DNA of 64,000 bases from Ophelia neglecta (lineage: Eukaryota), in assembly GCA_965285935.1 (NCBI GenBank), contig OZ260665.1, forward strand, positions 73,594,001 to 73,658,000, written 5' to 3'. Positions 3,001 through 37,793 of this stretch are shown piece after piece. A model generated the notes under the pieces. The model was not told the origin of the DNA, made no database searches, and saw nothing but the letters and a program-made list of their open reading frames with translations. Position 1 is the first letter of the stretch. Each line of letters begins with the position of its first letter. The position numbers and the translations under genes are program-made.

Positions 3001-6000
3001 CAAGGCGAACACAGCTGGTATTCAGAGAGGTTTTCAGTCCAAGTGCTTCCCATTATGTTTATTTATACCTTACTTTCCACCCTGTCATCCTAGAGAGTGA
3101 TGAATCGCATGCAGACGACAGGTCGGGACCCGACGGGTGGCGCAGTGTGCGCGCGCAGCGATGCGCGTTGCCTTGTTAGAGAACTTCCCACGCGTCAGAG
3201 CGTGCCAGCGTGGCCACCATCCCGGAAAAACAGAAATACGTGCCCGGACTTTTAAGTGGCCAACTTAGATAGCACCTACTGAACAACCATTGTCATGTTT
3301 TTTCATTTGTCTAAACCAAGAGAACAGAATCCATAACTATGCTAACTATATTTAAGTCACCAACTCAATGAATTTTAGTTTGTGTTGTTCTTTTAAATAG
3401 CACAGAATGATATATACTCTCTAGCAAACCAGAAAGGTCCTCTTCTATAAGGCTATGCCATCGAAACACTCCTCTTGAATCCTGCCATTGGTGGTGTTAA
3501 TAGTGGCCGTGTGGAGGGCCAAATTTTACCACGGCTTCTTCGAGGAGGCCTGCACGCTGGAAAGGACTTGGCATATTAAATATCTCCCCTAGAAATTTAG
3601 ACACATATAAAAGCTTCCATATATACCCTCCCCATTCTTGTAAGGATGAGATACCTAATTCATGACCATGCCTAAGTTTCTTTTAGCTGGCTAATTCCCC
3701 CGCCCCAATCTAAGTTCCTGAACCATCCGCGTTTGAAAATATTTGTTCGTTGGTGAACCTCTGTAGTTGGATGTTGAATGGTCCCTACAGTCACAGCTGC
3801 ATGTTTAACAGACGCTCTGTGGTCTTAGTCACAGTTTGTACCATATTGGGGAAAGTATGAACTTCGGAGGAAGCGTTTTATGTACATATCTTTTCATTTT
3901 TGTCATCAAACAAAACAACAATCAAACCAATTGAAATCCCTGTCTTTGTGGGGAATCGTTAAATCGTGTTTGTCATTCAAATGCAATCTTTTTAATATAC
4001 TGCAGTAAAACTCTGTGAAGTTGAAAAATTCGATGCAAAACCCACATAGAGTGTCAACTATAAATAGTGTCACTCCTTCCAAACCACTTGAAATTGTATA
4101 ACACTTCAGCGAGCTAAACACTCTCCAGTGATCAAGAGCGACCCGAGACGTCTTTAAGATTCATGCTAAGGGCGGAGAGTGTGCCAGGCCGAGGTCTCCT
4201 CGATGGAAATTACATCTGTCAAGACGACACCTTGTTATATACGACTACCAAGACTGCCTGAATTTAGCAGCAAAAAATGTATAGATAATATACATTTACA
4301 GCCGAATTTTCCTATAGTTTGGGAAGTATGAGTTTATATCGTCTGTAAAGAGAAAATATGCATTTATTTTGAGAGTGACAATGTCTGACCAAGCTTCTGA
4401 ACTGGTACTTAAACTATAATTAAGGAGTTATTTCTGTTTTATTTGCTCCATATTATTTTTTAACCTTTGAAAGCATGATGAGTAAAACCAACGTCTCGAA
4501 ATATTTATTACAAACACGGTGCTGTAGATATTCTTTTCTAATTTGTGTTGAACATATGTCACAACCAGTAAAGCTAAATTTGTACCAGCGCCCAATCATA
4601 ATTGCTTTTTCCGCCACAAAAGACTTCCTCTCGATTTATGATAAGCCCTACTTTAGGTTTATTTTTGAAAAATGTTGGTGGGTGATATCCTTGTCCAGTT
4701 TTTACTATGATTCTTTCATCTTTTATGCATGTCGGGCTGTCCACTTTTGCATTATTGTTCCTCTTTTCAATATGCGGAAGACCAGTGACAAAGGAGGCAT
4801 CTTTTAGAATTTTAATCTACACCAGCTCAGATTACCTTCTTTTGGTGTGGTGGCTTATTGTTGGCAGCCACCAGTGTATTGAAATTTGTCGTTTGGTCGC
4901 TCCGAGGTCCACCCTTCTGTGGGTGTCCGATCACTGGTCGGATTTCCGTTACAGTCCGTCTTGACTTTCTTGACCGCTCCATTTAGAGCTAATTCTCATA
5001 TATTAAGTGATTATCATCCTTCATCTTTTGTAGTAGGACAATAACCATTCTTGGATGTTCTTCAGTTTCCAAAGAAGAAAGACTTGTCTTTCTTGCAGTT
5101 CTTTGACGACTCCCATCATCTTTTGCGTGAATAAGCCGCAGTCGTTTGATTTCCTTCGAGGGGGTAAATTGTACAATCCTATAGGCTACCTTGAATCTGA
5201 AAAATGAGATGCGGCAATCAAGTAGAAATCCGTCTTTTGAAGTGGACATATATGGTGTCTATTTCAAAGGTTCTTTAAGCAATATCTTGGCCATAGCTTG
5301 CTGTCGTCGCTGCACTCACGCTATAAGTTGTCATCCTTTGTAGTTAAACCAAAGAAAGTTCACTTTGCGTGTTTCAAGTAGGTTATTAGAATCTCTTGAT
5401 GTTTTCTTATAGTGGCTATGATGGTCCACTCGATAAGAAGCTAGCGAGCATAGCTCCATCTTAAGTGATGTCCAGGCGGCTATTTCCCTTGCTAATTTGA
5501 AACGCGACAAATTTCGGGTAGGCTTTTAGCATAAATTCCACCGCCGATTACCAGTTTTCAATAGGAAAGTGGCAATCAAAGTAGATTCCCTTTGTTCTGT
5601 GGCCAAGTGGAAGACAGTCTTTTTCTGGGCACACGCGTTGGTAGGCTCCACGTCACGCAATGTCGCGTCCTAAAAGAGCAAGTTAATGACAGAGTTTGGA
5701 TGAAATACCCAACTTATAGTTTGGCATATTATTTAGAGGACAGACTCTAATTGATACCTAAACCATGGAAATGACCAGCCAGATTATGGCTGATTATAGC
5801 TTATACGTTTGATAAGACTGTCAGTTCATGCAATCTGGCATTGGTGGCCATTTGCCGCTATTTCTGACAGACGATGGGTATGATGATTATAGTTTCACGG
5901 GTCACGATTGTCCATGTGAGATACGGAATTGTAGTGCTGTGTCTGCCTGACACCCTCTATGTATTAAACGAATCCACTTTATAATCATACGGATTGATTG

Positions 6001-9000
6001 CGAAATAAATTGTGCTTTTTATAATGTTGCTTAAGTTACCAGATTTTAAATTTCCATTTTGTTGTCTTATATGCTCTTACGGTGGAGGAGATAAACTGAT
6101 AACGTCTACTGTCCACGTGAATCAAAGGTCTCGATTGGAATGAAAAGTGTACATTTTTGAGATTTGCTCAAGGTTATAGCTTATAAATATTGAAGATTTA
6201 TTGGTCTATGTGGGGAAATAACTTACACTACATCTCATGTTTTCTATAGTATATCTCTTGTAAACTGTGACAAAGGTAGTCCCGTATCCCGAGATTTATG
6301 TCGTCTGTCTCGGCTCAGGTTACCACCCTATTCTGACACGGGCACCGGGTTACCAACCGTGAAATCGATTTGTCACAGCCACCAGAAATGGCCGAGAATG
6401 GTAATATTTTCTTTACCCGAGCTGCTTTTACAACCAATTTGTCCCCAATGTGACACCTGCCCGTGTTATTCTTAAACAATGTATCAAAATTTCGCTGTCA
6501 TTGGCCCACAATGCATCAATCTCGGTGACATGTCCGATTCCTTGGCCTTTGTCAGGCAAATGCAGTAAATTGTTGTTGGTTTTCAATGCGTCTTCTCCAT
6601 CTTGTCTTCTCTAATTCCTTTTCCAATCAGTCTAGTTCACATTGATGACACCAAGGTGTCACACATTCTTTCATGGAAGGACAGTCCTCATTTCCTTAAG
6701 ATTGTCTACATTGATGATGTGTTTGTGTGTGGTAATAGGTTTCTTATTAGGCTGTGCTCTATCCCCAGGGAAAGATACATGTTTTATCAACAGATTACAT
6801 AAACTCATCTATACCTATTTATAATTTAAGAGCCGCGCTGAAATAGATCCGAACCTCCAACACAAATGTTAGTGTACATGCACCTATATTAAGATATATG
6901 CATCTCGTCTGATTTCAAAATGGCCCCCATGAAAGACTTTCGACAAGAGCTCCTAGAAGTGCCTTATTTGGTTCTGATTGACAACCATTACATTGTTGAG
7001 AATCATTAAACGACTTGGATTTTTTACAAGTAAGCCGAAGACTAGAGCATTTGGAAAGAATAAAAACCGAGTAATGTTCAAATTTAACTAGGCTTGGTCT
7101 CAGTAATGTCGGCTATTTATATTTTTAAAGTCGTTCTTCCCTGACCAGCGTGATAAGCAGGGCCAATTGGTATTGCTTTCTGTCGATTTACAGAGAAAAC
7201 GCTGGTAATTGGAGACTTTTCCTGTTCAATATTTATGTGTGGTCTCGTGCAACAGATCATTATTCATAGAGCACTCGCTTCGAGTCTCAATTATCGGCGA
7301 TTATTGTCCTTAATAGACCACTTCAAAGGTTTTCTGCAACAGGTTCACCTAGCTTTTCTTCCCTAGAAAGCCTTCCGACAATAGTAAAGTCCTTCAGCGG
7401 GGATTAGGCGCGAAAATCACGCGATTCGATTCCTTAGACGTCTGCCTTTCATCGTCTTTATCTTGGAAAACGCTGGACTCTTGGGACTTTAGTTACCCAT
7501 CGGGTAAAGTCGACGGGAAGGAGTCGGCAAGAACAAAAAAACAGTATCCCCGGCTCTATTTCAAAGAGGGTTTAGTAAAGCCACGGCGTGTCTGATGTAC
7601 CTGTATGGGGCACGCACTCCACCTTATCAGCTCTTAATCGACTCTTTACTGCCGGTCAATCTACTCAGGTTTATTAATTAGTGTTTTTGGCAGTACTAAT
7701 TTCTGCGGAGACAATGATCAAATTGGTTTTTAAGCCTCTGGAGGGTTGCTATCTCGTTGATATCTGTCATATAAAGCTGAGATGAGGAGGTCTGTAAGTC
7801 GGGGGCTAGGGGATGATCCGTTCTGTCAACAATCGGCCGGTGGTCGTCTGCTTTAGGGGGAGTACGGGTCGAGTGGGAACTACACACGTACCAGATTTGT
7901 AACCAGAACAGCAATACAGGCCCTGAAAGGAACACCCAACACCTACCACCCCTAGACAAACAGAAACACGTGTGCCAACTCAAATACACATTGTCCATCA
8001 TTTTGTGAGATAGAAGACGAGAAAAGGTGCTTGTGGGCTGATTTAATTACGATGGTCGAAGGTAAAAAGCGTCCATTGTTGATTCAAAGATGAAAACCAA
8101 ACAGAGAATCATGGCGATTGTAATCAGATAGCCATTTCTCATACATTCTGTAAAGGTTCAACTATTTTAAATTCAAATCTGAAATGGGAGCAGCTCCAAC
8201 AAATTGCCAATATAATATTCCGTGTTGTCCAGTTCCCTTGTTTTGTGAAATTTACCTCACTCGAATTTCACCGATTTGTTTATTAATGAGCTAATGAGCC
8301 GCTTTAGTGCGGGCTACTTCGAGTGTAGTCAGTATGTTAAAAGGGTCTCAGCGTGCCTCAAACGGAACTGTCCTCGGCGAAGAGGCGATAGAAAGTGAAG
8401 AATAAGATGAATTGCTGTATTATACCAAGAGTATTCTTTTGTGCGTGGTCACAAAGCGATAAAATCGCTGCTTTTGTCAGTTGCCGACGCCCCCGGGACG
8501 CTTTTCAGGCGGGCTGGTGGTGAATCATGCCTGTGTCTAAGTAAACGGAGCCACGCGCTAGTCTTGTGCCCCTGAACGGCTGCTGGCTACCGGTCTAACA
8601 CCCAGCCAGGCTTATACCACGTACATCCCAAATCGGGAGTCAAATTCCTCTACTTCTCTAGCATATTGGTAGGTCTCTGAACCAAACAAATGAAAACAAA
8701 AGTTAGCGTGATACTAGTAATTGAAGTATATTTTGCACACAACAAATATACAAGGACAAGGAAATCTCCCCATTTTAGAATTTTAGGATAGGCTGAAACC
8801 ACTCAAAATGATATATTACATATAAATATATATGAAAGCCTTCTGATGATATTACTGCAGCTCGTTGCGGAAATATCATGAACTTTTTGTTTGTAGGCCT
8901 ATCTGTTTAGGCCCATCCCTAAAACCATATAACTAAAAATCAGTCCCTTCCTGCATACCCAAATAACAAGAATGAATATCTCATCTATTCAGTAGGGTAC

Positions 9001-10735: not shown

Positions 10736-10767
<32 letters not shown>
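10736..10767. repeat. (CT)n microsatellite
   Basis: Seen directly. Confidence 0.95.
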
Positions 10768-10770
<3 letters not shown>

Positions 10771-11269
10771 CGCCATTCACCGACAAGTGCGACTTTACGT
10801 TTTTTTCTCTTCTCACTCGAAATACGCGCGCCATCATTAGGAGGCCCTTGAGAGTGTGGCACTAATTGTAATGGTATACATCAAGAGGGGCGATGAGCAG
10901 ACTGGTGGCATGAAAAAGTAAAAAGATGATGAGGCCACGGGGAGATAATTATCAGGAAAATTGTAAAACCCTGCCTTTAACTATCATATGAGACACGCTA
11001 GGATGCTAGACAGTATAGTTTTTGTCATATATGCATTCATAAAATCCTTTATGCGAAAAACAAATTTCAAAGAAGCACGTGTGCATCAAGATCCCAGATA
11101 ACACGATTAATTAGGTAAACATAATATTGAGCATTCTTTAAGATGATCATTAAGTATAATTGCTGTAATAACAGACATAATATTAATTACTGGATGGAGT
11201 ATTGCAAATTATTTAATTGGTGTTCGTTTTTTCTTTAAACCCCGAGGAGAGTGATAACATCTTTAACCT

Positions 11270-11323
11270 TACAATAACAAAGTAAGCAAAACCAAGATTG
11301 CATATATATTTAAACGTTTTATT
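11270..11323 (-). terminator. Neurogenin polyadenylation signal and downstream U/GU-rich element
   Basis: First minus-strand AATAAA seen after the stop (11323-11318), followed ~20 nt later by CTTGGTTTTGCTTACTTTGTTATTGT. Implies a 3'UTR of ~1.24 kb. Confidence 0.6.
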
Positions 11324-12542
11324 TTTTCAAAAACGCAACATATTGCTTCAAGCTATCAGAGAGATTCTTCAAATGTACAGTATATTCAAGTATTCACATA
11401 GGATGAAGGACTTGGTTTAAATTTATAACCATCAATTTGTGACATGACAACTAAAGAGAATTGCATTCATTCAACAGTGCAAGCAACATCACTACAGGTA
11501 TTGGAATGCCAACACACTTGGGGAAGGGAAATAAATATGCAAATAACACTGTGGATCGGAATTTCAATGGGACCGATTGGGAAAATACTTAATTGAAGAG
11601 TTCTTTATAACAATTATATCGTTATATCGACATTAAAGAGAAAATAGGACAATATGACACCCGAGTATGGTAAAACGTGACAATACTGCCGATATTGTCG
11701 GCGGGGTGAGATATTTTAGAAAGACAGAGGTTAAATTGTTCACAGAGCAGACGACAGGATGTGTCGTCTGCCTAAGGACATAGGTACAATATACTCAAGA
11801 GGCATAGGATGCGATGGATTATATAAATATTTGAGTAAGGCAAACGCTGGCAGGCATTAACAAACACTTCATAGAAAAAGTACGTTTTATGTAGAGGAGC
11901 TCAAAGCATAAGACATCTAAAGGGGGATCACTTTCGTACAGAAATAACCATTCATACCCTTGAACAAGCTAACGGCTCAATCAGTTGTCACGAGAAAATG
12001 TCTATTTACAACATTTACAAAATTGTAAAAATATACATATTTACACAGGAATAAATTTTGTAAGCGTCCCTCCGTCTTATTGTTCGCCGTTTGGACCGGA
12101 ACACACTTTTGAACTGGGACACACTAGTCACAATGGCATTCACGCTTAGTTCTTGAACTTTTTGTGGTAAGCGTCTCTTGTCGTGACCTTCGTCTGCGTT
12201 GCCCTGACCTCAGTGATCCCTCCCACAAGGGAGGCGCGCGACTGCAGAGATGTGGTTCTGCAATTGAAGTCGCCTGTCAGGCTAACAAAGTCCAGCTGAA
12301 AAGCAGTCACCACAGGGCAAAGTGTCACTGGTTTCAAAGAGGCACAAATCACTGCAGACAGTCATTAGGGCAGCCCTAGACGATTCATCTTCGCTCCCGT
12401 CCGAATTAGGGACACTGTTGTCCTCAGCTTGAATTATTTGGTCGGGTACAAACCACTGGTTTGATCAGTCTGAAGTTCTATATGAACATACATTGGCCAA
12501 GCGGTTCAAGCAAAACACAGCCCTCATTGTTCTCCCGATATT

Positions 12543-13415
12543 TCAGTAAGCTCCATACATATAATTATGCGCGGGATAAGAAGCAGTCTGGGGAGCGGTA
12601 TTTATTGTCGTCTGGTGATGAGAATGAGGCATTGAGTCCATGTAACCTTGCCAGTGATTGTCAGTATACACGGGTGAAGACTGCATGGTGGTCGTCTGCA
12701 CACGGGGCACGTTAGCGGCTTGTGCTCCCGTCATTAATGCCATCATCGAGCTTACCGCACTGTTCATCGCCGTGCTCATGGCGTCGCTCATAGGCCCGTC
12801 CTGACATCCGTGAAAAAGATGTTCAGTTTTCAGTGACACCGGCGATTCACCAGAGTTATTAGCACACGATGTGAAAGGCATCTGTAAGTGGTTAATGAAG
12901 GCACTAGGATCATACTCACAGCCCAAGGTCTCTTGGCGCTCCAGCATTTTCACAGTTTCCGATAACATCCAGATGTAATTGTTGGCAAATCGGAGAGTCT
13001 CTATTTTTGTAAGCTTGGCGTCTTCTGGGAAGGTCGGAAGCACACAACGAAGTTTGTCCAGGGCGTCGTTCAAGCTGTGCATCCTGTTTCTCTCTCTGTC
13101 GTTGGCCTTAACTCTTCTGGTTCTCTTAATTTTCTGTGCCACTTCTGGACTGACCGCCTTACTTCGACTTTTGCTGTATCTCTTTTTTCCTGCCTTGCCG
13201 CATTTAGACTGTTTTGAGTTGGAGTTCTCATCTACCGGCATTTGAGTTTGTTCCGATAAGGAACCACTCAGGTCTGTGAAAGGGCTCTGGCCATCAATAC
13301 TTCTGTTGGTGTCCAGGTCGTAAAGATCTGGTCCCTCGGAGCAGGATGGACTACGGAGTTGACTGCCCGGGCTGCCCACCTCTGACATGCTATAAACGCT
13401 TGCTGTCTCGGACAT
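12543..13415 (-). CDS. neurog: Neurogenin (atonal-related proneural bHLH, tap/ngn class), single coding exon, 290 aa
   Basis: The b[59 protein letters not shown] is neurogenin-type. The pre-basic segment [25 protein letters not shown] resembles protostome tap/ngn. Start placed at ATG 13415 (ccacgaccATG, good Kozak), just downstream of a TATA-like/Inr pair; TGA at 12545-12543. Confidence 0.95.
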
Positions 13416-13465
13416 GGTCGTGGAAAGCAGAAATATGTGGCACACGACTTGCTTGTAGTCAGCAC

Positions 13466-13500
13466 ACTGAAGGGCCGAGTGCCATCTCTCGCCATTTATG
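13466..13500 (-). promoter_or_regulatory. Neurogenin core promoter: TATA-like CATAAAT plus Inr TCAGT
   Basis: Minus strand CATAAAT at 13500-13494 and TCAGT at 13470-13466 (A at 13468), 32 bp apart, the canonical TATA-Inr spacing. Gives a ~53 nt 5'UTR. Confidence 0.7.
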
Positions 13501-16500
13501 GCCACGACTGATGGGGAGGCGGGGCGCTCACTCAACCACGGAGAGACACAAAGGCAGCCTCGAGCCGCGGCCACGCGTAAGAATACCATCAACGGCAGAC
13601 GATAAGCGTTTGCGCGCGCGACTGGCGGTGTCTGATTTGTCAGCAACTTGCAGTGATTTGCGGGAAAGTTTTTGTTTGGTGGATTGAGGGACAGGTGACT
13701 CGGAATTCTGGCAATAACCTTTTGTGCAAGGCCTGCAATATAATCACTCAAACATGATACGTTTAAACTGAAATTGAATTCAATTTTCCCTACCAACCCT
13801 TGGTTCTTCGCGAAAATGCAGGGGTGTCTGAATACTTCCCTTTCATTTCGACTTTACTTGACGAATAGTTGAAGCCTCACCGGTAGAACTCCGATGAAAA
13901 TTTATGAAAATATAAATGTCCAATGGCGTCGTGTCGACTTATAAAAGACAATTACACTTCTTCAAAACCGAACATGCCCACCTAACAGATAGGTTTCTGT
14001 CTCGCCCAGTTTAACACTTACAGACTGAATGTGATTTTAGCTGACTAAATACTATATTATGTATTAAACTAAGTGTTAACTACCTTATAATGATAATACG
14101 ATGAGCAGAAAGATGTGCTGATGTCCAATGTCAGTGAACTCTCTCTGTTGGTGTCAGCAAACCGCCATCCGTTAGTGGCACAGATCTATATGATCTGGAT
14201 ATAGGAAACCTATCAATCTCTTTCCACATTATAGTCATCTAAACTAGAGCTGTTTTTAAGATATAAAACAAATGTATCTGTCTGCCAAGGAACCTCAAGG
14301 AGCAAACAACCTTACCTCTGTTTTCAATACGAGCGTGCTCCCCACGCTGCAGTCATACCTGCATTCTGTTAAAGCAGAGTATATGTACTCGGGCCATATT
14401 TCCACATTTTACATGTTTTAAGGGTACAGTGTTCCCAAATGTAAACGGTACACAGCTATAGACATACATCGTATTCAAAGTGTATGTTGATAGGGTAGTA
14501 TGGCTTGCGTGATACTTCAGACTGGGCTGAATAGCGAAAGCTTAAGGTAGGCCTAGATCCAATCATCGGTTGAAGTGTATCAACTATAGTTATCAAAACA
14601 GAGTCCATATATGTCCAACTCCAAGGGTACTTATCAAATGTACAAGAGCCACCTCCACATGATTGTATTAGGCGTATCTTTAATTTCAAGATATTGTCGT
14701 CACAATTAAGCAGTACTCTCGCTATAGCATAAGCCAAATATAAAGAAACATGTACTAAAAATATCTCTGGAGGAAATAATAAACTTAGGTCAGTGTTAAT
14801 GAAATCAAGGACCTTCGCAAATACCTGTACAGTTAACTGTGTGTTTTAAAGATGTTGAGACTACTTTTCTTTACGAATTGTTCAAATTGGCGAAAGAAGA
14901 CTGCGATGGCAAAGACTAATTGTCTGTAAAAAGTCTACCAATACACGTCTCTTGGCACGGAATCAGCTACACAGTTCTGTACCGACGAAAAATGACATAC
15001 CTTAGCCATTTAGCAAGTGAATAGTGACATATACGAAATTGTATGCGTATAATATCTGTCAAAATTTACATTTATTCTTAGACTACATAGGTTATTGGGG
15101 TTTACACCGTCATCGACGATGTAAGCTGAACGGGGATAGCACAGATGATACGGAGAGAACAGTTAAAGGGGCGGCTAGGTTAAACGTGCCTTCCTTAAGA
15201 AAAGTCCCGACACTGTAAGTTACAAGTTCATTAAGTGATTTGTAGCAATGGGAAACTGAGAGGGATTCCCTCTAGGGTAGGGTTGATTGTAAAATGTTTG
15301 ACATTGATTTTGATGCAGAACCATTCCGCTTTCACTGATGTTGAAATCAGTTGAAAAAAACCCACAGATCATTATTCGAATTTGAGCCACTTGAAAACGA
15401 CCCCCCTCCCCCACCCCATGGGTTGGCCTCGGTGGCCAATGAGAGTAACCATTGGTGATAGTGTGCAACTGTAAGGGTCAACTTTAAGGGGTGCGGAATA
15501 GAATTATGATCTGCGACCTCACCTTTAAATGCTAAAACTGAAAATATTGAAGTGGGCAGCACCGAAATTGGTTTAATCACATCAGTGAAAACGATCAAGA
15601 TCTTTTACTGGCCAACTATTTGGCGGAGGGTGGGGAAGAGGGAGGAGGGGAGGAACGGGCCGATATTTTTTCTTCCAGTTGCCACAGAGAGCGTCTCGAG
15701 GGAGTTATCCTTCCCAGGGGAGATTGTGGGGGCTTAGAGCTCCTACCACCCCCACCCCCCACCCCCCCTCATTTGAGGGGCCAACCCTTTCAAACCCGCG
15801 ACCCCTCTTTTCGAACCTTTTTCATCTATACGACTGATCCCTCGTGTATAAAGAAAGACCTGAAGCCACTAGAAGTCAATCTCCCCGCACCTGCAACAAT
15901 CCAATCAAAAGTAATTAATTATGTAACACAAATCACATTTAAATTGTCTGCATTCAAACTTCAAAAGTCAGGTATCGTCTCATACCTCGACAGCTTTTAG
16001 CACGGTGCTAATGGCCTCCACGCGAGACAATTGTAATCTCGCTGAGATCTCGCGGCGGCGTTAATTGACTTTTCCACCAGACGACAATCAGTTGAAATGA
16101 CCAGTGGCGCAGAACTGGAGAAAGTCAACCTAAATGGTGACTTCAATCAGCCGCTGTCGCCCCTTTTATCTTTGATAGGAGGTAAAGGGATGCGCCGAAA
16201 TAATCATAGCTTGCAGCCAAGTTTGAAACGAATGCTATTGACGACACAATAGGTACATATCATCAGCGTGACTTCGGGATCGCCCATTACTGAGCTTCAA
16301 AGAAATTACACAGGCAGGACAGGTCTCTTGATTGCTTTAATTTCACGATTTGTAATTACGAAACAGTTAATGTTCAGGTTTGCCACCGATTTCTCGTCGG
16401 TATCATTGCAAACAATTATTGGCCGGTCTGCTTACTTGCCAATTTCGAGTATTTTAACGAGCCGGGGTTTGGAATATTCTAATGATAAATCAGACTTTGT

Positions 16501-19500: not shown

Positions 19501-22500
19501 TTCCTGCTGTCACATGCCACAAAAGAATGATCAACATTCACAAGCTACTTACGGCGCCCTCTTTAGTAAAGTTTAATTTGACACGTCTGCCGGCCCCATG
19601 GGTCGGAGATTAAAGCATGGCAAGCACGTAGCTAATATACAATGGCTGACTAGTAAAACAACATCTCGCCTTCAAAAAAATGGAGTAAATATCCTGTTCA
19701 AACTTAAGACATCAAATGTTGTAATATGCGATCGTAAATATGGAGGTACACAATTATTTACCTTTAGTGTATCTTTTCAGTTTGCCCAAAGTCAAGCAAC
19801 CACACTAAGAAAGTGTAAATCAAAAAGTAAACGAAATGCTTTGGCGTCCGTTTATCTTCTTTAAAGCCTATCTAGCGGGCAATTATCCTTCTTATTTTAC
19901 AAAATAACGGAAATATGCCATATGACCAACTAAGGTATAAAGGCAACGTACCATTAGATTTAATGTCTGTGCTGACATGATCGTTTGGGAAATAGGCGAG
20001 TGTTGAACGTGAATTTGATTAATGTCATTAACTACATGTCAGATTTGTTTTGGGCCTTGAAACTCGGGGTGCCAAAGCTCCATGGTATAATTCTCGGAAG
20101 TCCACTGGTACTTAAATTTATTAATCTACCTCGTCGTCTAGCCTCTTAAGAGACATAGCCCCTCTGGTCACTTCCTATGTCCACTTAATGGACTTGTTGC
20201 CCATTTACTGATTTAGAGGGGATAGGAGGTAGGGTCACTATTATCTATCCACAAGTTGATCCCGTGAGGGTCTGAAGTGTGCCGGACTAGTTTCCCCTCC
20301 TATGGGTCCGGGGGATTAATTACCCCCACACTCCCTCAGGGAGGGACCAACCCTCTGTGAAAGCGGACACGGCCTTTCGCAAAGATAAGATCCGCCCCGG
20401 GAGCAGGTCCTTATACCAGGAGCCACAGGATATTACCATTGGCATGACAAGGGTAATCAGGAAACGAGGTTAGAGACAGCCATTGACACCAGGTGGTTGG
20501 GTGAACTTGATTTTTCATCCTTGCCAATATTGTTTAATGTGCTGTCAGAAATCACCTTAATTTCATAAAAATAGCGACACATCCAATCTGACCTCTGGCA
20601 TGTTCAACAATGTATTAATAACGGCTTTGAAGATCGGTGTTTAATTAAAATCCACTTCCTTTTTAAATCTTGATGTCGGTGTTCTGGGTTTATGTACGAG
20701 CCGACCTCTTTTCTTCGATGCGTGTTCTTCAACGCGCCTTTGTTTAAAATAAGTAACGTTTGCACCTGATGTACTTTTACCGCAATTGTAAATAAAAACA
20801 TGTGGTTTATGTATGACAACGAAGAACTATCATTCACCTTTAATTGATCTTAATTTATCTCTATCAAATTACGACATTCTCGCTGAGTCTTGTAATACAC
20901 TTGTAATTACCTCGATACTTCAGGCGAGAAAGTGAAAAGGAAGAAATATCTGCGGTTTTGTCTTTTTCTTCTCCGATTAAAACCTCTTTTTTCCTAGACT
21001 TCAATGTAGATTGGTAGTCATTATTTTTCGAATATCATTCTAATTTGTCCAACCACATTATAGTAGCGTTAGATAATATTACAAGCAGAAGGATAAGATA
21101 GCATATTTCTATCTCGACCTGCTGACCCTTATAGAATGTGGAAGATACACAAATCAAAGATGTATACAAATTACAAGCGAGTTTGCCACCCGCGAAAGTA
21201 TTAAATTGCGCCTCTTTTGTACACATATGCATTTATATTAGTCTTCGTTTCCACTTGTGACATTTCTTTTGTAGCGATTCATTTTACTAATGGTACATTT
21301 CTAAAGATTTGTAGGTCAGGGCCCAAAAGACTATTTGGTATTTCCAATCAATCATATATTTACGTTATTATCTAACTGTTCTAATACTAAAATGGTTTCT
21401 TTTAGACTGAATGTATTCCTACTGCCCATTTATCGCCCTTGTGACATGGTAGACAGTTGGGTACCATCAATATCTCCTGTAATAGTATGGGGGGTAGCCG
21501 GTGCCCGGTCTCGCTATTGTCCCCATGTCACTGGTTGACAGGGCGTTGTGACTCCCTAGTCTCAAAAAGAGAAAAAAAAACTTGGCCATCAACAAAGGAC
21601 CCCATTCATTTTAATAGGGATTTCTATATCTTTCTTTATAAATTCAATTTAGGGACATTACTTTTTAGAGAAAGATATTTGATATTTAATCGGTGTAATT
21701 GGTCTCTCAATATGGGGTTCCGTCGTATATACTTGATACAAAACCCTATATAATATTATTATAAACGTTTTCGATTCAATCCGTCTCCGAGAAGAATGGT
21801 GAGAACCCTATAGGAATGATGGCAGTTGTGCTGCAAAAAAGTGAAAGTCGTCTGCCTAATTTAACCGACATTTAACTGTACCCGCCGCCTGGCCTTCAAA
21901 ATGACAATTGGGACCCATAAACTAAGGGGCACACGCCTCCCCGTATATTAAACTGTCAGGGAGCAAGACCCGAATTTCAAACAGTCATAACGCTGTTCGC
22001 TTTAGGTCATCCTTACATAATGAGGTATCAGTGTGGATTTCTTCTCGTCTGTTCACGCGTTATTGCGTTACATTTACGACATTCAGGTAATTTGATGGGA
22101 GTTTACAGTCTACCGCAGATAAACACTACCACTAGCTGTAGAATTAAATGTGCATAGACAACACAATACACGCAAATTAAGGTTTAATTACTCGTGATAG
22201 TATTGTTTTACTCTTTTCAATTAACTTAGAATTCATTTATGAAAACTTAATCAAATTAAAGTCATTGCTGGTACTGCTGCTTTGGTACGATATAGATACT
22301 GTGTAAATCAGGGAGGGAATTCTTCGTCGAAAATAAGGGGCCTGTTTGCGACAGCTGTTTTAACATTAGACTAATGGGCGCTTTATATTTCATTGGAGTT
22401 TAAAGACATATAAATCAGACGCTGTGCTCAGGTACATGTCTGGTCGATAGACAGAGGATATTTTTCTCTTTTCGTATCATCATCGAGCGATCTGATATCG

Positions 22501-25500
22501 TAAATTTGCCAGCAATAGTGGAGAAGACATCCCAAGGGTACCGTAGCTGTTGGACGCGTCATTAGCACTTGGTCTGAGCATCCTATCCAACGGCATTCCA
22601 ATTAGTGTCAAAGGTTATGACGGGCAATTTCTAACCTTCGCTAGTTGGATCTCTCCTTAATCATTGTTTTCGCCACAGGTACCTGTCCAACACTTGCCTG
22701 GACATACAAAAATCAAAACATATTAATGCCATTATCAATTAAGCTTGTTAAAACCGGTAGTGACAATTCAGTAATTAAGAGCCAGAGGCATGGGAGGACC
22801 GGTAAACTCTAGGTGGGGTAGTAAACAATGGAATCTTATTAACTGACAAGGACGAGCCAGAGTGATGATTAGATTTTGAAATGTGATAATTGTATGTACA
22901 AATATTTGACAGATGTCTTGATTACAATTATAAATGATGCCCTGTCAAGACAGGGATTCCTTCAATTAAAGCATCTTCTGTGGAGGAGATCGTTAGGAAT
23001 CGCTCTCCCAAAGGACTAATTCTTAGCCCGTCTAGAACGATATAACATATAAAAGATAATGAACGTTTGGGAAATATATTTTTTCTTAAGTGACAGCAGG
23101 CATTTGAAACTCGATTTTCAACCATAGAGTTTCCGTTTATACTTAAAGTATCAGTTGCTACCGATACCATATTGGCCTCTAGTGCCGGAGTGAAGAAAAC
23201 CCCAGACGATATTTTTTATGTTGCAAGTTCGAGATTCACCAAAACTGTAATGTAAGATGGTATCATAGAGCTTGGTGGTTCAACCAGAACAATGTATACG
23301 CTATACCAAATCTATTCTTTTGTCGGTTTATCCCATATGTAGGGTTAAATATTCATCGCGTATGCTCAAATGTGAATTCAGGCCTACAGGAACGCGTCTT
23401 GGTGAACCAATTAATAAGAATTCTATATTGAATGACAAATGATTTAACTAATATAGTTTATCTCAATTTATTTTATTTATGAATTTCCCAAGTCAGGTGA
23501 GCCAAATGGCAGCCACCGCGCGTTTTGACAGACAGGTGACACAAACCTCCGCTCGTTGACAATGCCTGTCGACGTACATTTTAAAGTGAGATATTAATAA
23601 CAAATTTATCTTTTCTGAAACTCCATTTTATGGCTCTGCAATATTGAATTGCGGACCACATCTACATTAATTTCAGCTGGTCATAATTTGGACTTTTAGT
23701 TATATATATATATATATTCTTTGTTCATCGGCCTTCAAGTATAGTAACTAGCTGTATTCTGGCGATACTGAACTAGGCAAAGTCACACCTTTCTTATTTT
23801 CGGTATTCGAAGTTCTAAACTATTACCAATTTACCATATGGTGCATATGTTGTATAGAAATCGAAATTTCTCAGTATGATTGCTGTGTCGTCTGCTGTAG
23901 TCGTCTGCTGTTGTCTCATCTCCTAATTTAGTCTTTGATGTTACTTCATTACATCGATGATATTTTGATGATGCTCGATGCACTTCTGGTGAAGGATGAG
24001 AACGGAACTACAAAGATCTGCTCATTTCTCTGGAGAGGGCCTTGAGAACATTAACCAAATGAAGTTCTGTTTGATAAACCCCATTATAAGTTTTGATGGG
24101 TCTTCATAGACACTTTCTAGCCCACTCCTGTTCGGACTACAAAGATGCATCCCCCTTCTCAGGGATCCTTATTGGACAATTTTACACCCGATATCGTAAC
24201 TGTGGCAGAATGCCGGTGTAAAAACTTTACGTCATAATCCAGCTTTTTGCGTCACCATCCTAGATGAGTTTTAGGAATTTCAGTTTATTTCTCTGGGGGC
24301 ATGGACATGTGTCGGATTTTCCACTGGTTTAGCGGCCTGTTGCTGTTGGTTGACCGCTAATTGCTCCGGGGTCAGCATGAGTCCTGGAACTTTGGGTGAT
24401 TTACCGCGCTCACTAGCATGACATGACACCACCAGTCATTCTATAACACAATACAGGAGGGGCGTGCACCTGCCTGGTAATCTCCCGGCTTCCAGGGAGG
24501 CAAATTGGAGGCAGTACACCGAGGATTGGACGGCAACCCACGGCAAATAACAGGCCGCACGTATAACCACTGAGAAACAACATCGACGTTTGGAGAAATC
24601 ATAATATATATGGCACTGGCACGGTAATAAAGAAATACAAATCATTTTATTGCTACCTAAATAACTAGTTGCGGTAAAAGAGGCCCTTTGTAGTGAAATT
24701 CGGTGCTTTGTATGGTTTACCAATGAGTATGACTAATAGTTTGTTTCTAACCGGTAAAATGGAATAGTTAGTAGGGAAAGACGCCGATTTGCCAGCAAAT
24801 TGATGGAATGGTTCCACTTCGAGGCTTGGTATCAAATTCCACAAAACATTTGATGAGCCTGGCGTTTCCTTGCATTTCAGGGCTATTTTATTTTTGTATG
24901 GCAATCACATGTGGTTCGAACGAATTTAGATTAAGACCAATTTCACACCTAACCACGATTGTATGAAATTACCATTGGCGTCAAATCCGGGGGTCATCCC
25001 GGGACAGTTATTGTATCAATAAAAATGATGCAAATGATGCAAGCTGGGTTAACGGTTTTCCTAAACTACTAAATGCGCCAGTATTTGCAACTTTCGCCAC
25101 TAGCATTGTAGCCAGTTAGTTTGTGGAGAACACAGGCCGAGGGGAGGGGGTTGTTTGGGAGACAGGGCCCTGGGGTAACGGGGCAAGCCGATGTTGTCAT
25201 GGCGGCACGTGACTGCAGGTGGCCACCATTGTTCGAAAGCAGCCGAGCGGAGAGAAGCTGACAACGGACAAGGAGAAACGATGGCCGAACGCCAACACCC
25301 TGTCAGGCAGACGACATGGGCAGACGACTGCCTCTCCAGGCACCTCAACTCCCCCGCCAGGTTTCTGCATGTAGTAAACTGCATCATACACAGAGTTTTA
25401 AGGTCTCGATGAAAAAACAGTGCGCGTAGGTCTTATTTAAGAACCCGTAGGCTAAAACTGGTGTCGATGATGAGAATTAATTTAAGATGCTATGTTTTTG

Positions 25501-25599
25501 CTCCAAACACTTGCCCATTATTTACCAAATGAGAGGCAGCGAAATTATGCAAGTATGCTCCCATGGCTTCACTTTCCCATCACCCGCAAGCCACAGGAA

Positions 25600-25825: not shown

Positions 25826-28618
25826 ATTATGCCTAAATCACACAGCCATTCCCGAACCAGCGCATCGCCTGAAAATGAAAAACAGGAAGAGGCCTAACTA
25901 ATTTACTCTTGATGCAATTTGCTCCATAGCATGTTTTGGCTGTTGGGTTATTTTCTACTGTCTGCCTCTATTGTTGTTGTTAAAGGAACGACCTGTTTGC
26001 TAAATATTATGATTTTGTAGGATTCCTCTAAGTGTAAGGAAGAAATACACCAGGTCTTAACTTATTTGTTACGTGGTAGGCCCGTGCCAAATGTCTCGAG
26101 GATGAGTCATGTCTATATAGCTGGTGGATATGAACCCCGATCTGTGTTAAATGTAAACTTATTGTGCGGTCGGTAACAAATATGTAAAAACTTTATTGCA
26201 CATGACAATTTAAAATACGTACATGACAAGATGGCAGACAAATATACCTATAATGACGGATAGCCCTACTGAAAAACTAGACTGAAATCTTTTCAAAATC
26301 TGGGTAAAATAATTTATCATCTGGACACTTGTTGATTTCATAGCCTAGGTTTTTTTATGATAAATAGCCCTGGTCACTTCAATCAAGTTGTGGCTGATAA
26401 GATGACAATTGATATTTAATTGTTGTGCAGTCATCCCGACCAAGCGACGCTGACCCTCAGTGACCACCACTTGAAAGGCGAAACGCGCGCCAAGTGTGGA
26501 AAATAAATAACAGCCTCGAGAAACTCGCCGAGGCGTCCCAGCATGCTCTGGGCGGGCAGAGGCGCCAATGTCGAGTAAGCTCGCGGACCGTTTAATTCCG
26601 CTCAGCAAGTAGGTTTATTCCGCGCAGTACGAATGCTTATTCAGAGCTCAGTTTAAATGCTACAGTTTTTTATTGCGCGCAGTAAGTAGCTTTAAAGCGC
26701 GCACAAAGTGCGCGCAATAAGGCTACTTACTGCGATAAATTAAACGATGTGGGAAATACCCGAATTTACCGTACAACTCGGTAAAACTATGTAAAGGTAG
26801 GCATGTGGATTATTGCTTTCAATTTGATAAAACTTAAATATAGGTGCTTACTACTTGCTTTATGTGCAAATATATATATTTGGTCTTAGACTTAATGAAT
26901 ATCCCTTTTCAAACAAGGCAAATACAGACGAAGGTAATCGCAAAACCGTAATTTAATTACATTGTATGAGGTTTTGTTTGTCTATAAATGCGCGAACTCC
27001 TTTCTGGCGAGACAGCGTTTACAGGCACAATGTTCATCCAAACTTTAAAACTTTCCACCACGTAGGCTATTTCATGTGTATTTTTGTGATTTAAATAAAA
27101 CCAACAAAAAAAAATGTCGCTTCAAAATTTGAATCCACCCTTACGAGAGCATATCACTGATTCACAATTAAAATGATTCATAATAAGTGTATAACTAATG
27201 ACACGGAAGCAAAAATTATACATATTTTATCTGCCAAACCTGCTGTTTAATGTGAATATTTTTAAATCCTTTGTTGTCATTGGTGGAATATATTTCACAA
27301 AAACATCACACAAAAAATACATTTCACGCGAAACCTGGAGCGTGGTTGTCAAAAAGACAATGCTTTCTACTTTCACTGTATAAAGATATATAAAGCTAAC
27401 CCGAGTAGGCTCTAAATTGTTTTATGAACAAGTTTTTAAAAGCTGATAGAATGATATTCGGCGATGAAACTTTATATAATAGCTGCCATATATTTCAATG
27501 TATTTAACCGAGCGAATATGTCATTCAAAACAAAAGCCGTCTAATTGAACAGGAACACAATCGTGGGTAAATTAAGCAGGAGAAATATGAGCGTCTTCCA
27601 GAAATTCGAGGAGGTGACTTCAAACGGCGCCGATAGGAGGCGGAATTGCTTTCTTTGCACGACTGATTGCTCTTGACAAAGACTGAAGTGGCGTCTTGTA
27701 CAGACGAGAGCCTGGGATTGTCAACGCGAAATAAAGGCCAATCAAAGGCCCTTTAACACGGAATACTCGTGTTTTTTGTATTGGGTGACAGGGGAGCGTG
27801 GACAGGGCAGTTCCCAATACAATACAGGAATGAGAGGAGTTAGGTTTATTGCCCTTTGAAAGCCGCAATGAATGGGTGTCCAAGGGGGGGAGGAGGCGTG
27901 AGCCATGGTGCTTGGACAGGCGGGTCTTTGTGTGGGGTTTGTGGCGGCCAGGCAGGGCTCTATCACCCGGAGCCTCGTATTGTGTGAGGGAGACCCACCT
28001 GGCTGACGGGACCGAGTGAGGGGCAGAGGTCAGAACCCTTGTTCACCTCCCCGGCCCCCACGACCTTGGGGTGAAACCACCGCATCAAAACCACCCGCAA
28101 ATCACTACAGCAGGTCATCCGCTTCGACAAAGGTCGACTTGCTGGACATTTTTCCACTCTGGACAACCTGTCTCGGGTATGAGGCCGTATTGCCCGTGTC
28201 GAGGGCAAAGGTTGCCGATAAGGGAACAGAGGGGACCCACGGGTCAGCTGTCACCGGCTCTTGGCAAGGGCCTCCGGCTAATAAACCAAGGGACATGTTT
28301 ACAGCCAAAGGATTTAACGACTGTTGGCAAAGTACAGCAGGTTTTTCCTGTACTGTTAGGTTTTGGTTTATGGTTCTTGTTTATATCCGTTAAAACCGTG
28401 TATATAGTAAGGTCCATTTTATGCCAACAACTCAACAAATCTTGTTTGTTATTTTATCACTTCCTGCTTTCAATCTGGTTTCAGTATCAAAGAACCTTTT
28501 TTTTCCCGATAGCACACGATGTAGATTGTCATTTGTTCCCGCCTGTTCCTCAGGTTACTTGTAGACACACGACCGTTCACGAGATTAGGAAAGGCCAGGT
28601 CACACTGGCGGGGAAAGG

Positions 28619-28675
28619 ATGTGTGTGTGTGTGTGTGTTGCGGGGGGGGGGGGGGGGGGGGGGAGGGAGGGGGGC
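28619..28675. repeat. (GT)n microsatellite fused to a ~22 nt poly-G tract
   Basis: Seen directly. Confidence 0.95.
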
Positions 28676-33489: not shown

Positions 33490-33597
33490 TACACACACTC
33501 ACGCGCGCGCGCATGTGTGCGCGCTCTCTCGCACACACACACACATGCACACACACACAACAACAACAACAAAACACACACACGCACGCGCGCGCAC
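33490..33597. repeat. Compound (CA)n/(CG)n/(CAA)n microsatellite
   Basis: Seen directly. Confidence 0.9.
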
Positions 33598-35406
33598 TTG
33601 AAACTAGTTTAAAGAGAATGGGCTCTCTAATAACACCTGTACTTTGATAATAAGCAGGCAATGCAAATCCAGAAGACCAGTTGCTAGATTCTCCATTAAA
33701 CACCGGCGGACAAGACATAACCTCGGTTTTGTCTATATCACTGTTTTATTGTAAATTGAAATGGAATTTCTCATTTGAACTATATGCTCATATTGAATGT
33801 CTGGGATACTAAGATGTGCCAAGGCTTTTAAGGTGCCCCGTGGGTTTATTTACAGCTTCACATAGATCTAACGCCAGTCAATGTTCTATCCCTTACGTCA
33901 ATAAACTGTCATTATTTCGATGCTCCTAGGCCGAAGATTTTCATGAAACATTTTAATATTAGGACCTTTTACATATTTCATTTTCCCTTCTCAAATAAAA
34001 GGCAAAATTTGGCTCTTTGTCATTTTATGTACATACATGTATTCAAACCAATGTAACTGTGTTTGAAAGAGAGACACGTGAAAAATACCCATGGGGCCTC
34101 GTAAAGAATTAGTTAATGAGGATTCTCCCTTTTATGTTTTATGGGGGAACCCCCTCTTGACTTTAGATTAAACAAAAACGTCGATGATGTCCGTGCCATC
34201 ACCCTCCAACACCTATCACCAGGCAGCTAAAGATCACAGCAGCAGACGACAAGGCGAGCCACCCACCCATGACTGACCACTGATGGATACTTTGATAAAT
34301 TCCATCATTTTTCACTCTAATGGACAGCCAATGATGGTTCCTCAATTGCCGCCTGCTAGCAACCAAGTGCACGTGGTCGAGGAGCGAAGCTGTCCATCAC
34401 TTTTTATTGTTTTTCTTATTGATGTACAATTGTTATGCCCCGTACATCAATCTTTACGTCACCTATAATGTTTTACAGCCCCAGTCTAAGTTACACGTGT
34501 TGGACACATTTTCACAGCGGCGCCGTTTTTTGTAATTTTACCACCTAGGGCACGTGCAGGTGAGCACAAAGCACTTTGTATACTAGTTATTTCTACACTC
34601 CCCCAAAGTTTGTTTAAATCCTTTATAACGGACATCTCGCGGACAGCGTTCATTGAATGATAGTTCAGGACATAATGAGCGGAGACAGCGTGCCAACACC
34701 TCATTTCAATTTTTCATGCTACAGGCATTCGATTCCGAAACAGCCACTCACTCCATCAAATTCATATTACCTACCATTCTTGAGGAGCGACAACCAATTC
34801 TCAACAATAGACAAATCTATATGCAAATGCAAGACATACCACTTTCTATTAGTAGAATTCGATTGAATTAAAGGAGTAGGAACATTTGTGGCCGATGATG
34901 GTATGTTGCATTCTGGTTTGCCTTCCTAATGAAACCAAATCAAGGACCTCTAGGGCCGTTCAAACATGGTCAATTGAGTTTTCAAAATGTGTGTCAAATT
35001 TGCATACATGATTATTTAAATTAGAAAAGAAGGTGAGCAATAAAACTAATCGTTGAGAGGGTCAAATGATTTAGATCTCGAATACGGTATGAACTCTAAT
35101 GTAATGAAAAGACTAGTTTTGTTTGCTGGTTAGGTATCATTTTGACCACTCCTTTCATAATTACCTTAGAAATCATCAAAATAGTACTTTGTGGCTGGGC
35201 GGTGACACGCCAGTAATTATAAAACTCGTTTTAGATGGATTGACCATCGAGGACAATTGGATTTAAACAGCTGAAATGAAACTTTGGACATTTTATATAA
35301 CAAAAATTACAATAGGCCTATAATTTGGTGGCTTAATGGTTCGGGCTCCCAATGTCGGTGCAAAGCGAATGTCACTATAATCGGTTCTTAGTATCAATAC
35401 TTTCTC

Positions 35407-35428
35407 ATATATATATATATATATATAT
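35407..35428. repeat. (TA)n microsatellite
   Basis: Seen directly. Confidence 0.9.
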
Positions 35429-37730
35429 GTATTTTTCTAACCGAACAATTCTGAAACAAGAATTACAAGCTTCCGTATATTTTTTTAGATAGGTAAGTAC
35501 ACGGCGAGAAAAATTGCTGCTTCATGTACGTAAATATAGCCCGCCATTACTAAGGTGGTGCTTGACATTATAGTTGGGCAAAGACTTAGCCTAACTAATC
35601 ATTAAGGAGCTTGTACTGTTCTATCAACTAAATTGTTAGCCAAAAAAAGTAGCAACGGTATCATTGAAGCTCAATTCAGTAATTGCAGTTGTTTAGCTTT
35701 CCAAATGTTCTGGTCCTCCTTGGATCTAATTTATACCAAAGATTAAGACATAAGAAGCCCGAGGGTTCGGAGGGTAGGAGGGCGTACTATCTGGCTGGAC
35801 AAAGGAAGGTGAACGTTGGTTTAGGGACCTGGTAAATCTACTTACTGTCCCATTAGCTATGTCCAAAATAGATCGTGGCCCAGAGCGACGATCATAATCT
35901 TCATTCTTACTATTTTATGTTCTCCCTTTTTACACCTCTGAATTGAAGCCTATTACCATTATTGGTGTAGCATTTCACCATTTTGGCCACTCCCCGAGGG
36001 GGAAATCGGTCTGCTTGTCCCCGGGATGGCACCTATAGACCCCGCCAATACCTCCGGCAAATCACCATGGCATCTGCCAGCTTAAAGCTGCCCAACAAAA
36101 GAAAGCTCACTGAAGAAGGATCCAGCAGTGTATGGTCGATGAATCAAATATTACGTCTGCTTCTTGGCTATATTTACTTCAAAATTGCATATAATGGAGT
36201 ACATTTTGAAAAGTCGGTTGGCTGTTTGCTGATAGTTTGGTAACTGGTCTAATGTAATCAGATTCATTATACTGAGCTGCAATCGAAATAACGACAAAAC
36301 CAAAAGCCCTATGATTTTAGTGATTATTAAATTTGAGCCGTGCTTCGATTATTTTTCTTAAACATAAGATCCTAAAACCTATCCTCTAGATAAATACAGA
36401 CGTGAGTGTACAATGGCGGTCTGTAGTATGACCTCGTCGTAACGTCCTTGTCTGACGGATTCCCGCCACGCGTCTACCGGAACTGATTGTATACATTACA
36501 CACGGCGGGTCGTCTGCCCATTCTGTGATCTACGACAAAACTCAGCCAGCCCAATGTAAAGCTATAAAGAAGCCTCCTAGTAACGCCATAGTCTCTCCCC
36601 ATTAGCAGCTAGACAAGAAATCAGCGCCTGTCTACTCCCGGGGAGCTCAATTTTGTCTTCAAATTAACACTTCCATTTGTGGTCTTTCATCAATCTCCGC
36701 GAGCTTCTACCAAGAATTCGGCTTTTGTCCAAGTCTCTGTAATTTTGCTGGTAAACTGTTTATTAGAAAGCAATGAAAAATTCCAAATTTGATTTAGACC
36801 GTAAACAATTATTTCGATAGTAGAGGAATATTCCCGGGGGGTAATAGGTTTGATATTTCAAACATTTTTTTTTATAAAGCTGCGGTGTCAGCTTTACCAA
36901 CACACCATCACTAATATAGGTGCACTGATTAAACAGAAATATAGTGCAATTTTATCGATCGATTGTTTGAAATTATCTGTTCATTGTGCATACAGAATAC
37001 CAAAATATAAAAACATAAAGATACCACGTGTGTATGTATAATTATGTAAATAATAAAAGTCTCAGTCAAATATATTTACAATATGATAACTTATTTCCTT
37101 GATGGTCCAGAGGTGGTACTTTGATAGCAATTCAGATTCTATAGAACAGCCATTAAACAGAATATATCACACAAAAAAAAAGAAAAATACATTATATAAT
37201 GCAATAATGCAATGTATTCATCGTCCAAAATAAAACAAAAATGTTTGTAAAACTATTTAATGACCATCGAATACAGAATGTTATTATATGAAAACGTAGA
37301 TGAGATTTTTAAGGAAAATAGTAACTCTTATAGTATAGAGGCTAATCACTCATTGCCATATGCCTTTTTAAGAAAATGTTGCCACCAAACCAGAATATAA
37401 GATCAAAAAAGCAATACACATGTAGGCTTTTTGATCGGTTCAAGAAACATTCATGTCCATTGCAAAGCGTAAAGCCATACACTGGATTCATTTTCGAAAT
37501 AAAAAGTGCGGGAAGATGGGTTAAACTTGGCTGGGGCGGGGGCTAAGTGTTTCTATGAGAAAATGAAAGCGATTTTTTTTTTCTTAAAAGTGGCTACTTC
37601 TGATCATTTCTAGATGAACAGCTTTAGGCAAAACTTCTGTGAAAAAAGGTATAATATTGGGCAGAGAAAAAACGTGGTCTAAAATTAAATACAAAATGAG
37701 CTACAAAAAAAGCAAGAGACCCGGATGGTA

Positions 37731-37791: not shown

Positions 37792-37793
37792 AA

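Follow-up and report, generated by a model that had tools for sequence, protein, structure and literature searches.

A nine-base word repeated across the neurogenin locus of Ophelia neglecta, a putative recognition site of a DNA-binding protein

According to recent work, developmental loci in ctenophores, placozoans and the annelid Capitella are organised by motifs and binders that are lineage-restricted and unnamed (PMC12221973; 10.64898/2026.05.18.725834). In ctenophores, a CpG-containing motif at promoters and enhancers is bound by the lineage-restricted zf-C2H2 proteins CTEP1 and CTEP2, and placozoan loop anchors carry a transposon-end motif (PMC12221973). For C. teleta, Davies et al. (bioRxiv 10.64898/2026.05.18.725834) describe an unnamed motif that is present at 57.6% of the TAD boundaries and at 68.8% of the loop anchors. 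The Zelda word CAGGTAG is found in promoters, gene bodies, and coding as well as non-coding DNA (PMC3197655). In addition, CGTCTG has been described as the "optimal Thing1 box" (PMC2963826), and CAGAC as a SMAD-binding motif (PMC11607640).

Here we describe a nine-base word, GCAGACGAC, in a 64-kb window of Ophelia neglecta, the window being the whole stretch of DNA that was analysed. The window encodes a neurogenin, which lies in gene-poor surroundings, and a protein of the XDH/aldehyde oxidase family (Table 1). The best full-length named match of the neurogenin protein was the neurogenin of the annelid Malacoceros, with which it was also placed in the tree (support 89/86, unstarred, long branches). 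Twelve perfect copies of GCAGACGAC, five on the forward and seven on the reverse strand, were present against a chance expectation of 0.14, and at least 12 copies were reached in none of 100 dinucleotide shuffles. Markov models of orders 2, 3, 4 and 5 predicted 0.20, 0.24, 0.48 and 1.96 copies, respectively, and the probability of at least nine independent clusters was 6e-12 at order 3. Among the non-microsatellite 9-mers of the window GCAGACGAC ranked top, and CAGACGA was the top 7-mer after poly-C (Markov order 3). All 12 copies listed in the preliminary description were recovered, with none beyond 36,517; its hand estimate of the chance expectation was about 0.2 copies per 64 kb, and the one-mismatch promoter copy, given there as about 13597, was located. 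Another unexplained frequent word, ATAGGCCTA, occurred 12 times against 0.5 expected.

GCAGACGAC is the best form of a graded motif, RCA(G>C)ACGA(C), which carries the signal. Sites of the pattern RCASACGA, which was chosen post hoc, numbered 28 in the left part of the window (1-37 kb) and zero in the right part (37-64 kb). With local-block shuffles as reference, the neurogenin 3' flank, gene and 5' flank held 5, 8 and 15 sites against 0.65, 0.32 and 1.48 expected, the density being highest over the gene itself, and the three right-hand segments held none. The core CAGACG had 35 copies on the left, against 11 expected, and 3 on the right. Non-perfect CAGACGA was enriched independently on the left (13 against 2.9 expected, p=1.2e-5) and not on the right (1 against 1.6). 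Among the 24 single substitutions of GCAGACGA, the most enriched were ACAGACGA (6/1.1) and GCACACGA (5/0.6), both with zero copies on the right, and a purine was preferred at the base before CA. Weak variants were not clustered around the perfect copies (p 0.16-0.41). The perfect copy within the coding sequence overlaps GCACACG on the opposite strand at 12698, and the residues over it were not conserved in 13 distant neurogenins.

The confinement to the neurogenin landscape that had been claimed for the word holds strongly for the core (35:3), which was matched in none of 1000 scan-corrected simulations, and is modest for the 9-mer alone. After merging pairs, the nine clusters of GCAGACGAC gave p=0.026 with the boundary placed at the XDH start, and p=0.025 after scan correction. 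For CAGACG the change-point is best placed at 36.75 kb, with positions from 36.5 to 39 kb lying within 2 log-likelihood units; the last GCAGACGAC copy coincides with the inferred edge of the domain by construction alone. The "27 kb XDH region" said to lack the motif is indeed motif-free, but besides the gene it takes in a gap of 5.5 kb and the 5 kb that follow the gene. Other enriched words occur on both sides, such as TAGGCCTA (6:3, left to right) and TACATGTA (3:4). The sites are dispersed over the domain in mixed orientation and show no concentration at its edge, unlike boundary motifs. GC and CpG within 50-100 bp of the eight non-coding sites were higher than at random positions (p 0.01-0.025, uncorrected, with five window sizes tried), and the elevation was gone at 200-400 bp.

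Close pairing of the copies as such is real. Among 200,000 simulations, only 3 produced three pairs at most 20 bp apart, and 397 produced at least two. The copies had been read as a dimeric site, with two independent pairs sharing a 13-bp period, and this reading was not borne out. The two pairs are not equivalent, one being part of a tandem array and the other sharing only the motif plus one base, and the third pair is inverted at a spacing of 16. Since one of these pairs goes back to tandem duplication, the data do not establish a fixed spacing of 13 bp. For six of the twelve copies, a search within 45 bp that allowed up to two mismatches gave no partner, save one self-overlapping match at 34242. 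The inverted pair was found with perfect copies, as described, in a 3' UTR inferred from AATAAA.

Table 1. Features of the neurogenin locus and its surroundings (window positions)
Feature	Position	Strand	Detail
Motif-bearing domain around neurogenin	3111..36517	.	
Perfect GCAGACGAC	3111..3119	+	neurogenin 3' flank
Perfect GCAGACGAC	7843..7851	-	neurogenin 3' flank
AATAAA	11318		basis of inferred 3' UTR
Inverted (tail-to-tail) perfect pair	11747..11771	.	10-bp arms, 5-nt loop, in inferred 3' UTR
Neurogenin CDS	12543..13415	-	intronless, bHLH PF00010, 290 aa
Perfect GCAGACGAC	12691..12699	-	within neurogenin CDS, over codons V-Q-T-T
Variant GCACACGAC	13440..13448	+	in inferred 5' UTR
Inferred transcription start	13466..13500	-	TATA-like CATAAA 13495-13500, Inr-like TCAGT 13466-13470
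One-mismatch copy GCAGACGAT	13595..13603	+	about 125 bp upstream of inferred start
Further GCACACGA copies	12862, 28512, 29286, 29373	all +	
Perfect copy	21847..21855	-	upstream region
Direct pair 23887/23900	23881..23911	-	tandem duplication of 13-bp unit; period 13, 2.5 copies, 94% matches
Direct pair 25307/25320	25307..25328	+	period 13, unrelated spacers, only motif plus one base in common; not a simple recent duplication
Perfect copy	34242..34250	+	upstream region
Last perfect copy	36509..36517	-	CACACG opposes at 36499 (+)
More RCASACGA variants	4339-, 5867+, 6301-, 10238+, 12190-, 18300-, 22045-, 26924+, 27700+, 28565+		
XDH/aldehyde oxidase family (xanthine dehydrogenase), coding exons	42574..58849	+	motif-free control; coding matches about 42.57-58.85 kb

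The word could be a relic that is frequent genome-wide, with its origin, for example, in the ends of transposons or in reverse transcriptase codons for A-D-D, or it could be a mutational attractor. In either case it would have no role, and its absence on the right would reflect chance or younger DNA. We consider this unlikely. It would fit the p of about 0.025 for the confinement of the 9-mer alone, the existence of other unexplained frequent words such as ATAGGCCTA, the pair generated by tandem duplication and the larger repeat content of the right side (self-BLAST 2995 bp against 57 bp on the left). In bivalves, abundant non-autonomous DNA transposons presumably also carry GCAGACGAC in their ends. 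The placozoan transposon-end motif at loop anchors offers a parallel (PMC12221973). However, the flanks of the nine independent sites are no more similar than random, none of the 12 copies lies within a match of the window against itself, the core is distributed 35:3 and one copy stands in coding sequence. A young transposon was rejected on the unrelated flanks and the 0/12 copies in self-BLAST matches, and a reverse transcriptase codon relic on the absence of F/Y-A-D-D in frame from all 12 copies and of a transposon or reverse transcriptase domain from the 123 reading frames of at least 68 aa outside the XDH span. CpG or methylation decay as the cause of the confinement was likewise rejected: CpG o/e was 0.81 on the left and 0.82 on the right, and zero CpG-transition (decayed) copies were found of a motif that contains a CpG. 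Equal CpG, unrelated flanks and the lack of decayed copies thus argue against both methylation decay and a young transposon. Microsatellite slippage as the origin was rejected as well, since the window holds no GACGACGAC forms. That the element acts in RNA, via the hairpin in the 3' UTR, is highly improbable; the stretch 11700-11820 folds at -25 kcal/mol (z=-3.9), but such folding is expected of any inverted pair, and the inferred transcript takes in only three of the twelve copies, the other nine being distributed over both strands. There was no Rfam match, and a structured RNA or tRNA was rejected.

The word could also be a degenerate E-box of the CGNNTG type, bound by a bHLH heterodimer in the style of Hand1/E-protein. 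The E-protein would contact the half-site RCA[G/C] and its partner the adjoining GTCGT, and the heterodimer would serve as a cell-type-specific activator or repressor of neurogenin. The core CGTCTG is identical to the Hand1/E-protein Thing1 box, the tolerated G>C change sits at a central E-box position and a purine is favoured before CA; E-proteins accept both CAG and CAC half-sites. Nevertheless, the second central position is invariant (GCAGCCGA 3/0.6 at best), so that only one central base varies, and the palindrome of the partner, TCGTACGA, is limited to one place. The flank of the Hand1/E47 site is CGTCTGG, with G after the core, whereas the window motif is flanked by GT...C; CGTCTGG was not enriched (4 against 2.5 expected), whereas GCAGAC was (32 against 12.8). 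The canonical-looking T form GCAGATGA has zero copies, which also removes the reading that methyl-C mimics T in CAGATG. The density of sites over a proneural locus is moreover unusual, and overall we regard the E-box, like the relic, as unlikely. A SMAD element, in which CAGAC overlaps a Mad-type box, is less credible by far. The preliminary description had noted the SMAD core CAGAC and no full motif; GCAGACGAC does contain CAGAC, but the tests for SMAD failed. The Mad-type box has the consensus GRCGNC, which GACGAC fits, and forms the composite GRCGNC-N5-GTCT. The assignment to SMAD does not hold, as CAGAC by itself hardly exceeds expectation (85 against 73; CAGACA 30 against 28), the excess being found only in CAGACG (35 against 11) and requiring the following G and A. 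In addition, the palindrome GTCTAGAC has zero copies, CCAGACA is split 5 left to 5 right, and the composite occurs once in the window and not in 1-37 kb.

Similar to the Zelda word, the window word is short, dominant and present over promoter, gene body and flanks alike, but the sequences differ and CAGGTAG has one copy in the window. With the CTEP1/CTEP2 motif it shares a CpG; the latter belongs to another phylum and is GC-rich with two CpGs, and looping, methylation sensitivity and the binder have been shown for ctenophores. The C. teleta motif is described at boundaries and anchors, whereas the window word is spread through the domain; the two may be the same. In a full-text literature search, no title or abstract start among the matches listed describes the motif, logo-only motifs escaping such a search, and the one mollusc match examined was a cloning primer. 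The core was not found in the PDF text available for the PMC9977687 supplement nor in the PMC12862220 supplement, occurred only in one primer in that of PMC11618098 and gave two incidental matches in that of PMC10735318. Passages of PMC11292947, PMC12153100, PMC13317027 and PMC12460157 name no such motif.

We give about even chances to a single host DNA-binding protein that recognises RCA(G>C)ACGA(C) in a sequence-specific manner and marks the neurogenin developmental domain. A protein site is the best reading because of the occurrence on both strands, the graded profile, the unrelated flanks, the GC- and CpG-rich patches and the ending at the domain edge; the binding site proposed earlier is thus retained, without its dimeric 13-bp arrangement. 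This reading draws on one locus, and the refined pattern was selected after inspecting the data. Many copies would be kept over the regulatory domain, from the 3' flank and 3' UTR through the coding sequence to the 5' UTR, the promoter and the 23 kb upstream, and the domain would end ahead of the XDH side with its larger repeat content. The protein would bind as a monomer or with partners at no fixed spacing. A plausible candidate binder is a C2H2 zinc-finger protein that reads three triplets, and a bHLH register would fit the site as well as a zinc finger. None of 16 transcription factor motifs tested showed significant proximity to the sites, the lowest p values being 0.07 (GAGAG) and 0.13 (Su(H)), and five were absent from the left domain. 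The protein may act on chromatin domain-wide, by enhancer priming, tethering to the promoter or Polycomb recruitment, in the manner of the fly proteins Zelda and GAF or of ctenophore CTEP1/2, and not as a single cell-type input.

A further, tentative possibility, which we hold to be less probable than the protein site itself, is a so far undescribed chromatin factor of spiralians that flies and vertebrates lack. It would mark whole developmental-regulator domains and prime, tether or recruit Polycomb; its site might derive from transposon ends and might be the Capitella loop-anchor motif. The word would be ordinary if it turned out to be genome-wide or a relic. As a 9-bp word with a visible domain edge, it would be a ready bait for such an annelid protein and, in genomes that lack annotation, an inexpensive marker of regulatory domains. 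If the reading is true, motif density would map developmental regulatory domains from sequence alone.

Twelve perfect copies of the 9-mer, which includes the core CAGACG, were found between 3111 and 36517, all (12/12) where the preliminary description had placed them, five on the plus and seven on the minus strand. The excess over chance claimed there was confirmed, with 0.14 copies expected from dinucleotide shuffles and 0.20, 0.24, 0.48 and 1.96 from Markov models of orders 2, 3, 4 and 5, respectively. At order 3 the word ranks first among all 9-mers of the window behind poly-C, (AT)n and (CA)n, and the excess therefore survives correction for all 9-mers. Matches with at most one mismatch number 28 in the window, against 5.2 expected. 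Also in strong excess, both left and right of the boundary at 37 kb, are ATAGGCCTA, with 12 copies in the window against 0.5 expected, and palindromes of the TACATGTA type.

The neurogenin domain (1-37 kb) holds 35 copies of the core CAGACG and 25 of CAGACGA, against three and one, respectively, in the rest of the window. After removal of the 12 perfect copies, 13 CAGACGA sites are left versus 2.9 expected (p=1.2e-5). When each of the 24 single-base variants of GCAGACGA was counted, ACAGACGA (6/1.1) and GCACACGA (5/0.6) were the most prominent, and those altered at positions 2, 3, 6 and 7 showed no enrichment. The degenerate form RCA[G/C]ACGA, a post hoc pattern picked from the same data, has 28 sites left of the boundary and none right. 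Its density is 2.0 per kb at 10-14 kb and 0.5-0.65 per kb in the flanks; each of the three left segments carries more sites than shuffles that preserve its local composition. The orphan motif is real and well defined: a graded, domain-restricted word on both strands, peaking over neurogenin and reaching into its coding sequence.

Confinement to the neurogenin landscape, also claimed previously, is strong for the core (0/1000 simulations as extreme; best split at 36.75 kb) but only modest for the 9-mer itself, which with pairs merged into nine clusters gave p=0.007 for a post hoc boundary, 0.026 for a boundary at the XDH start and 0.025 after scan correction. Methylation decay was ruled out as the cause, because CpG o/e is near-equal on both sides (0.81 left, 0.82 right). 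Two further frequent words, TAGGCCTA and TACATGTA, are present left and right. No copy of the core falls within 58.9-64 kb, where CpG is more frequent and four ETS-like sites are present; the word therefore does not mark CpG-rich DNA or promoters in general. Self-BLAST repeats cover 57 bp in the left 37 kb, which is nearly free of internal repeats, versus 2995 bp on the right.

The neurogenin bHLH domain was the sole Pfam match over the curated cut-off in 123 reading frames outside the XDH span, a scan of frames of 68 aa or more that shorter exons would escape. Of 18 named homologues, the one that matches the neurogenin best comes from the annelid Malacoceros, with 147 bits over nearly the full length. 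The two pair in the tree at 89/86, on long branches, and the window is thus likely, but not securely, of annelid origin. TATA-like and Inr-like elements together with AATAAA suggest the limits of the transcript. Su(H)-like and Hes-like sites are expected at a Notch-regulated proneural gene. Here GTGGGAA sites lie near copies 3111 and 7843 and GGCACG[CT]G sites lie upstream, and their closeness to the motif was not significant.

Features of the window around the motif
Feature	Position	Strand	Remarks
Neurogenin, intronless	12543-13415	-	bHLH Pfam match
TATA-like and Inr-like elements	near 13470-13500		putative transcript limit
AATAAA	11318		other putative transcript limit
Su(H)-like GTGGGAA / Hes-like GGCACG[CT]G sites	3185, 7873, 17487, 25204, 34549
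Near-perfect 77-bp palindrome	26668-26744		upstream of neurogenin; adjoins Su(H)-like site at 26748
Possible tRNA-derived SINE	37790-38060		~1.3 kb beyond last motif copy; no tRNA predicted by ARAGORN
Unit of 126-141 bp, five diverged copies	40928-41590		upstream of XDH coding matches
XDH-family coding exons	about 42.57-58.85 kb	+	coding matches
AT-rich nested satellite	43200-45520		in XDH intron; periods 22, 101, 152, 268
Inverted-repeat pairs	45758-47566, 61600-61990		start TTAAGGG/TAAGGG, like non-autonomous DNA transposons
Possible housekeeping promoter	60190-61300		CpG-rich; four ACCGGAAGT sites; free of motif; YY1-like and NRF1-like words

Three close pairs among 12 sites arose in 3 of 200,000 simulations, and two or more pairs in 397; the close pairing is non-random. 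The repeated 13-bp dimer spacing proposed earlier was dropped, since 23881-23911 is a tandem duplication of a 13-bp unit (94% matches), leaving 25307/25320 as the only independent case, and the third pair is inverted with a spacing of 16. By simple arithmetic, two same-strand pairs share a period by chance about once in 12 (spacings 9-20 allowed). There is no support for a dimer of fixed geometry. As RNA, the inverted pair forms a hairpin (z=-3.9), a property common to all pairs so arranged, and an RNA element is highly improbable.

Flanks of nine independent sites were no more alike than random, none of the 12 copies lies inside a self-BLAST hit of the window, and neither CpG-transition product of the 9-mer is present there. 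No copy reads as F/Y-A-D-D, and a reverse-transcriptase relic was rejected. The word is unlikely to derive from a recent transposon; it may derive from an ancient one. The ends of abundant non-autonomous bivalve transposons presumably carry the same 9-mer, which we take as a lead only. That the word is functionless and genome-wide seems rather unlikely.

The eight non-coding site clusters are slightly GC- and CpG-rich within 50-100 bp (p 0.01-0.025, uncorrected), a signal lost at 200-400 bp. None of the known transcription-factor motifs tested lies significantly close to the sites, and weak variants do not cluster about perfect copies in the window, which counts against a simple enhancer module. 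A SMAD element is very unlikely, as CAGAC, SBE, CAGA and the composite element, as defined in PMC11607640, all lack the required enrichment. The Hand1/E-protein Thing1 box (PMC2963826) has a core identical to that of our motif; the flank expected from the Hand1/E-protein matrix is not enriched here, and binding by a cell-type-specific bHLH heterodimer is improbable. Binding of one host protein would keep the word in place, and this protein would act on chromatin in a general way, by priming, tethering or Polycomb recruitment. We give this prediction about an even chance and favour it over the heterodimer, a functionless word, SMAD and an RNA element because the sites span the whole domain, not one or two enhancers.

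Such a mode of action would resemble that of Zelda (CAGGTAG; PMC3197655), whose sequence differs, and the motif appears alike in kind to the ctenophore CTEP motif and the transposon-linked placozoan anchor motif (PMC12221973). The nearest candidate, compared by description only, is an unnamed C. teleta motif, which 10.64898/2026.05.18.725834 places at the majority of TAD boundaries and of loop anchors and which could be the same word. Among the titles and abstract openings listed by literature text searches, which motifs given only as logos would escape, none described this motif; the motif tables of PMC9977687 could already include it. It is possible, though we hold this tentatively, that the putative sites are read by an undescribed spiralian factor marking the domain.
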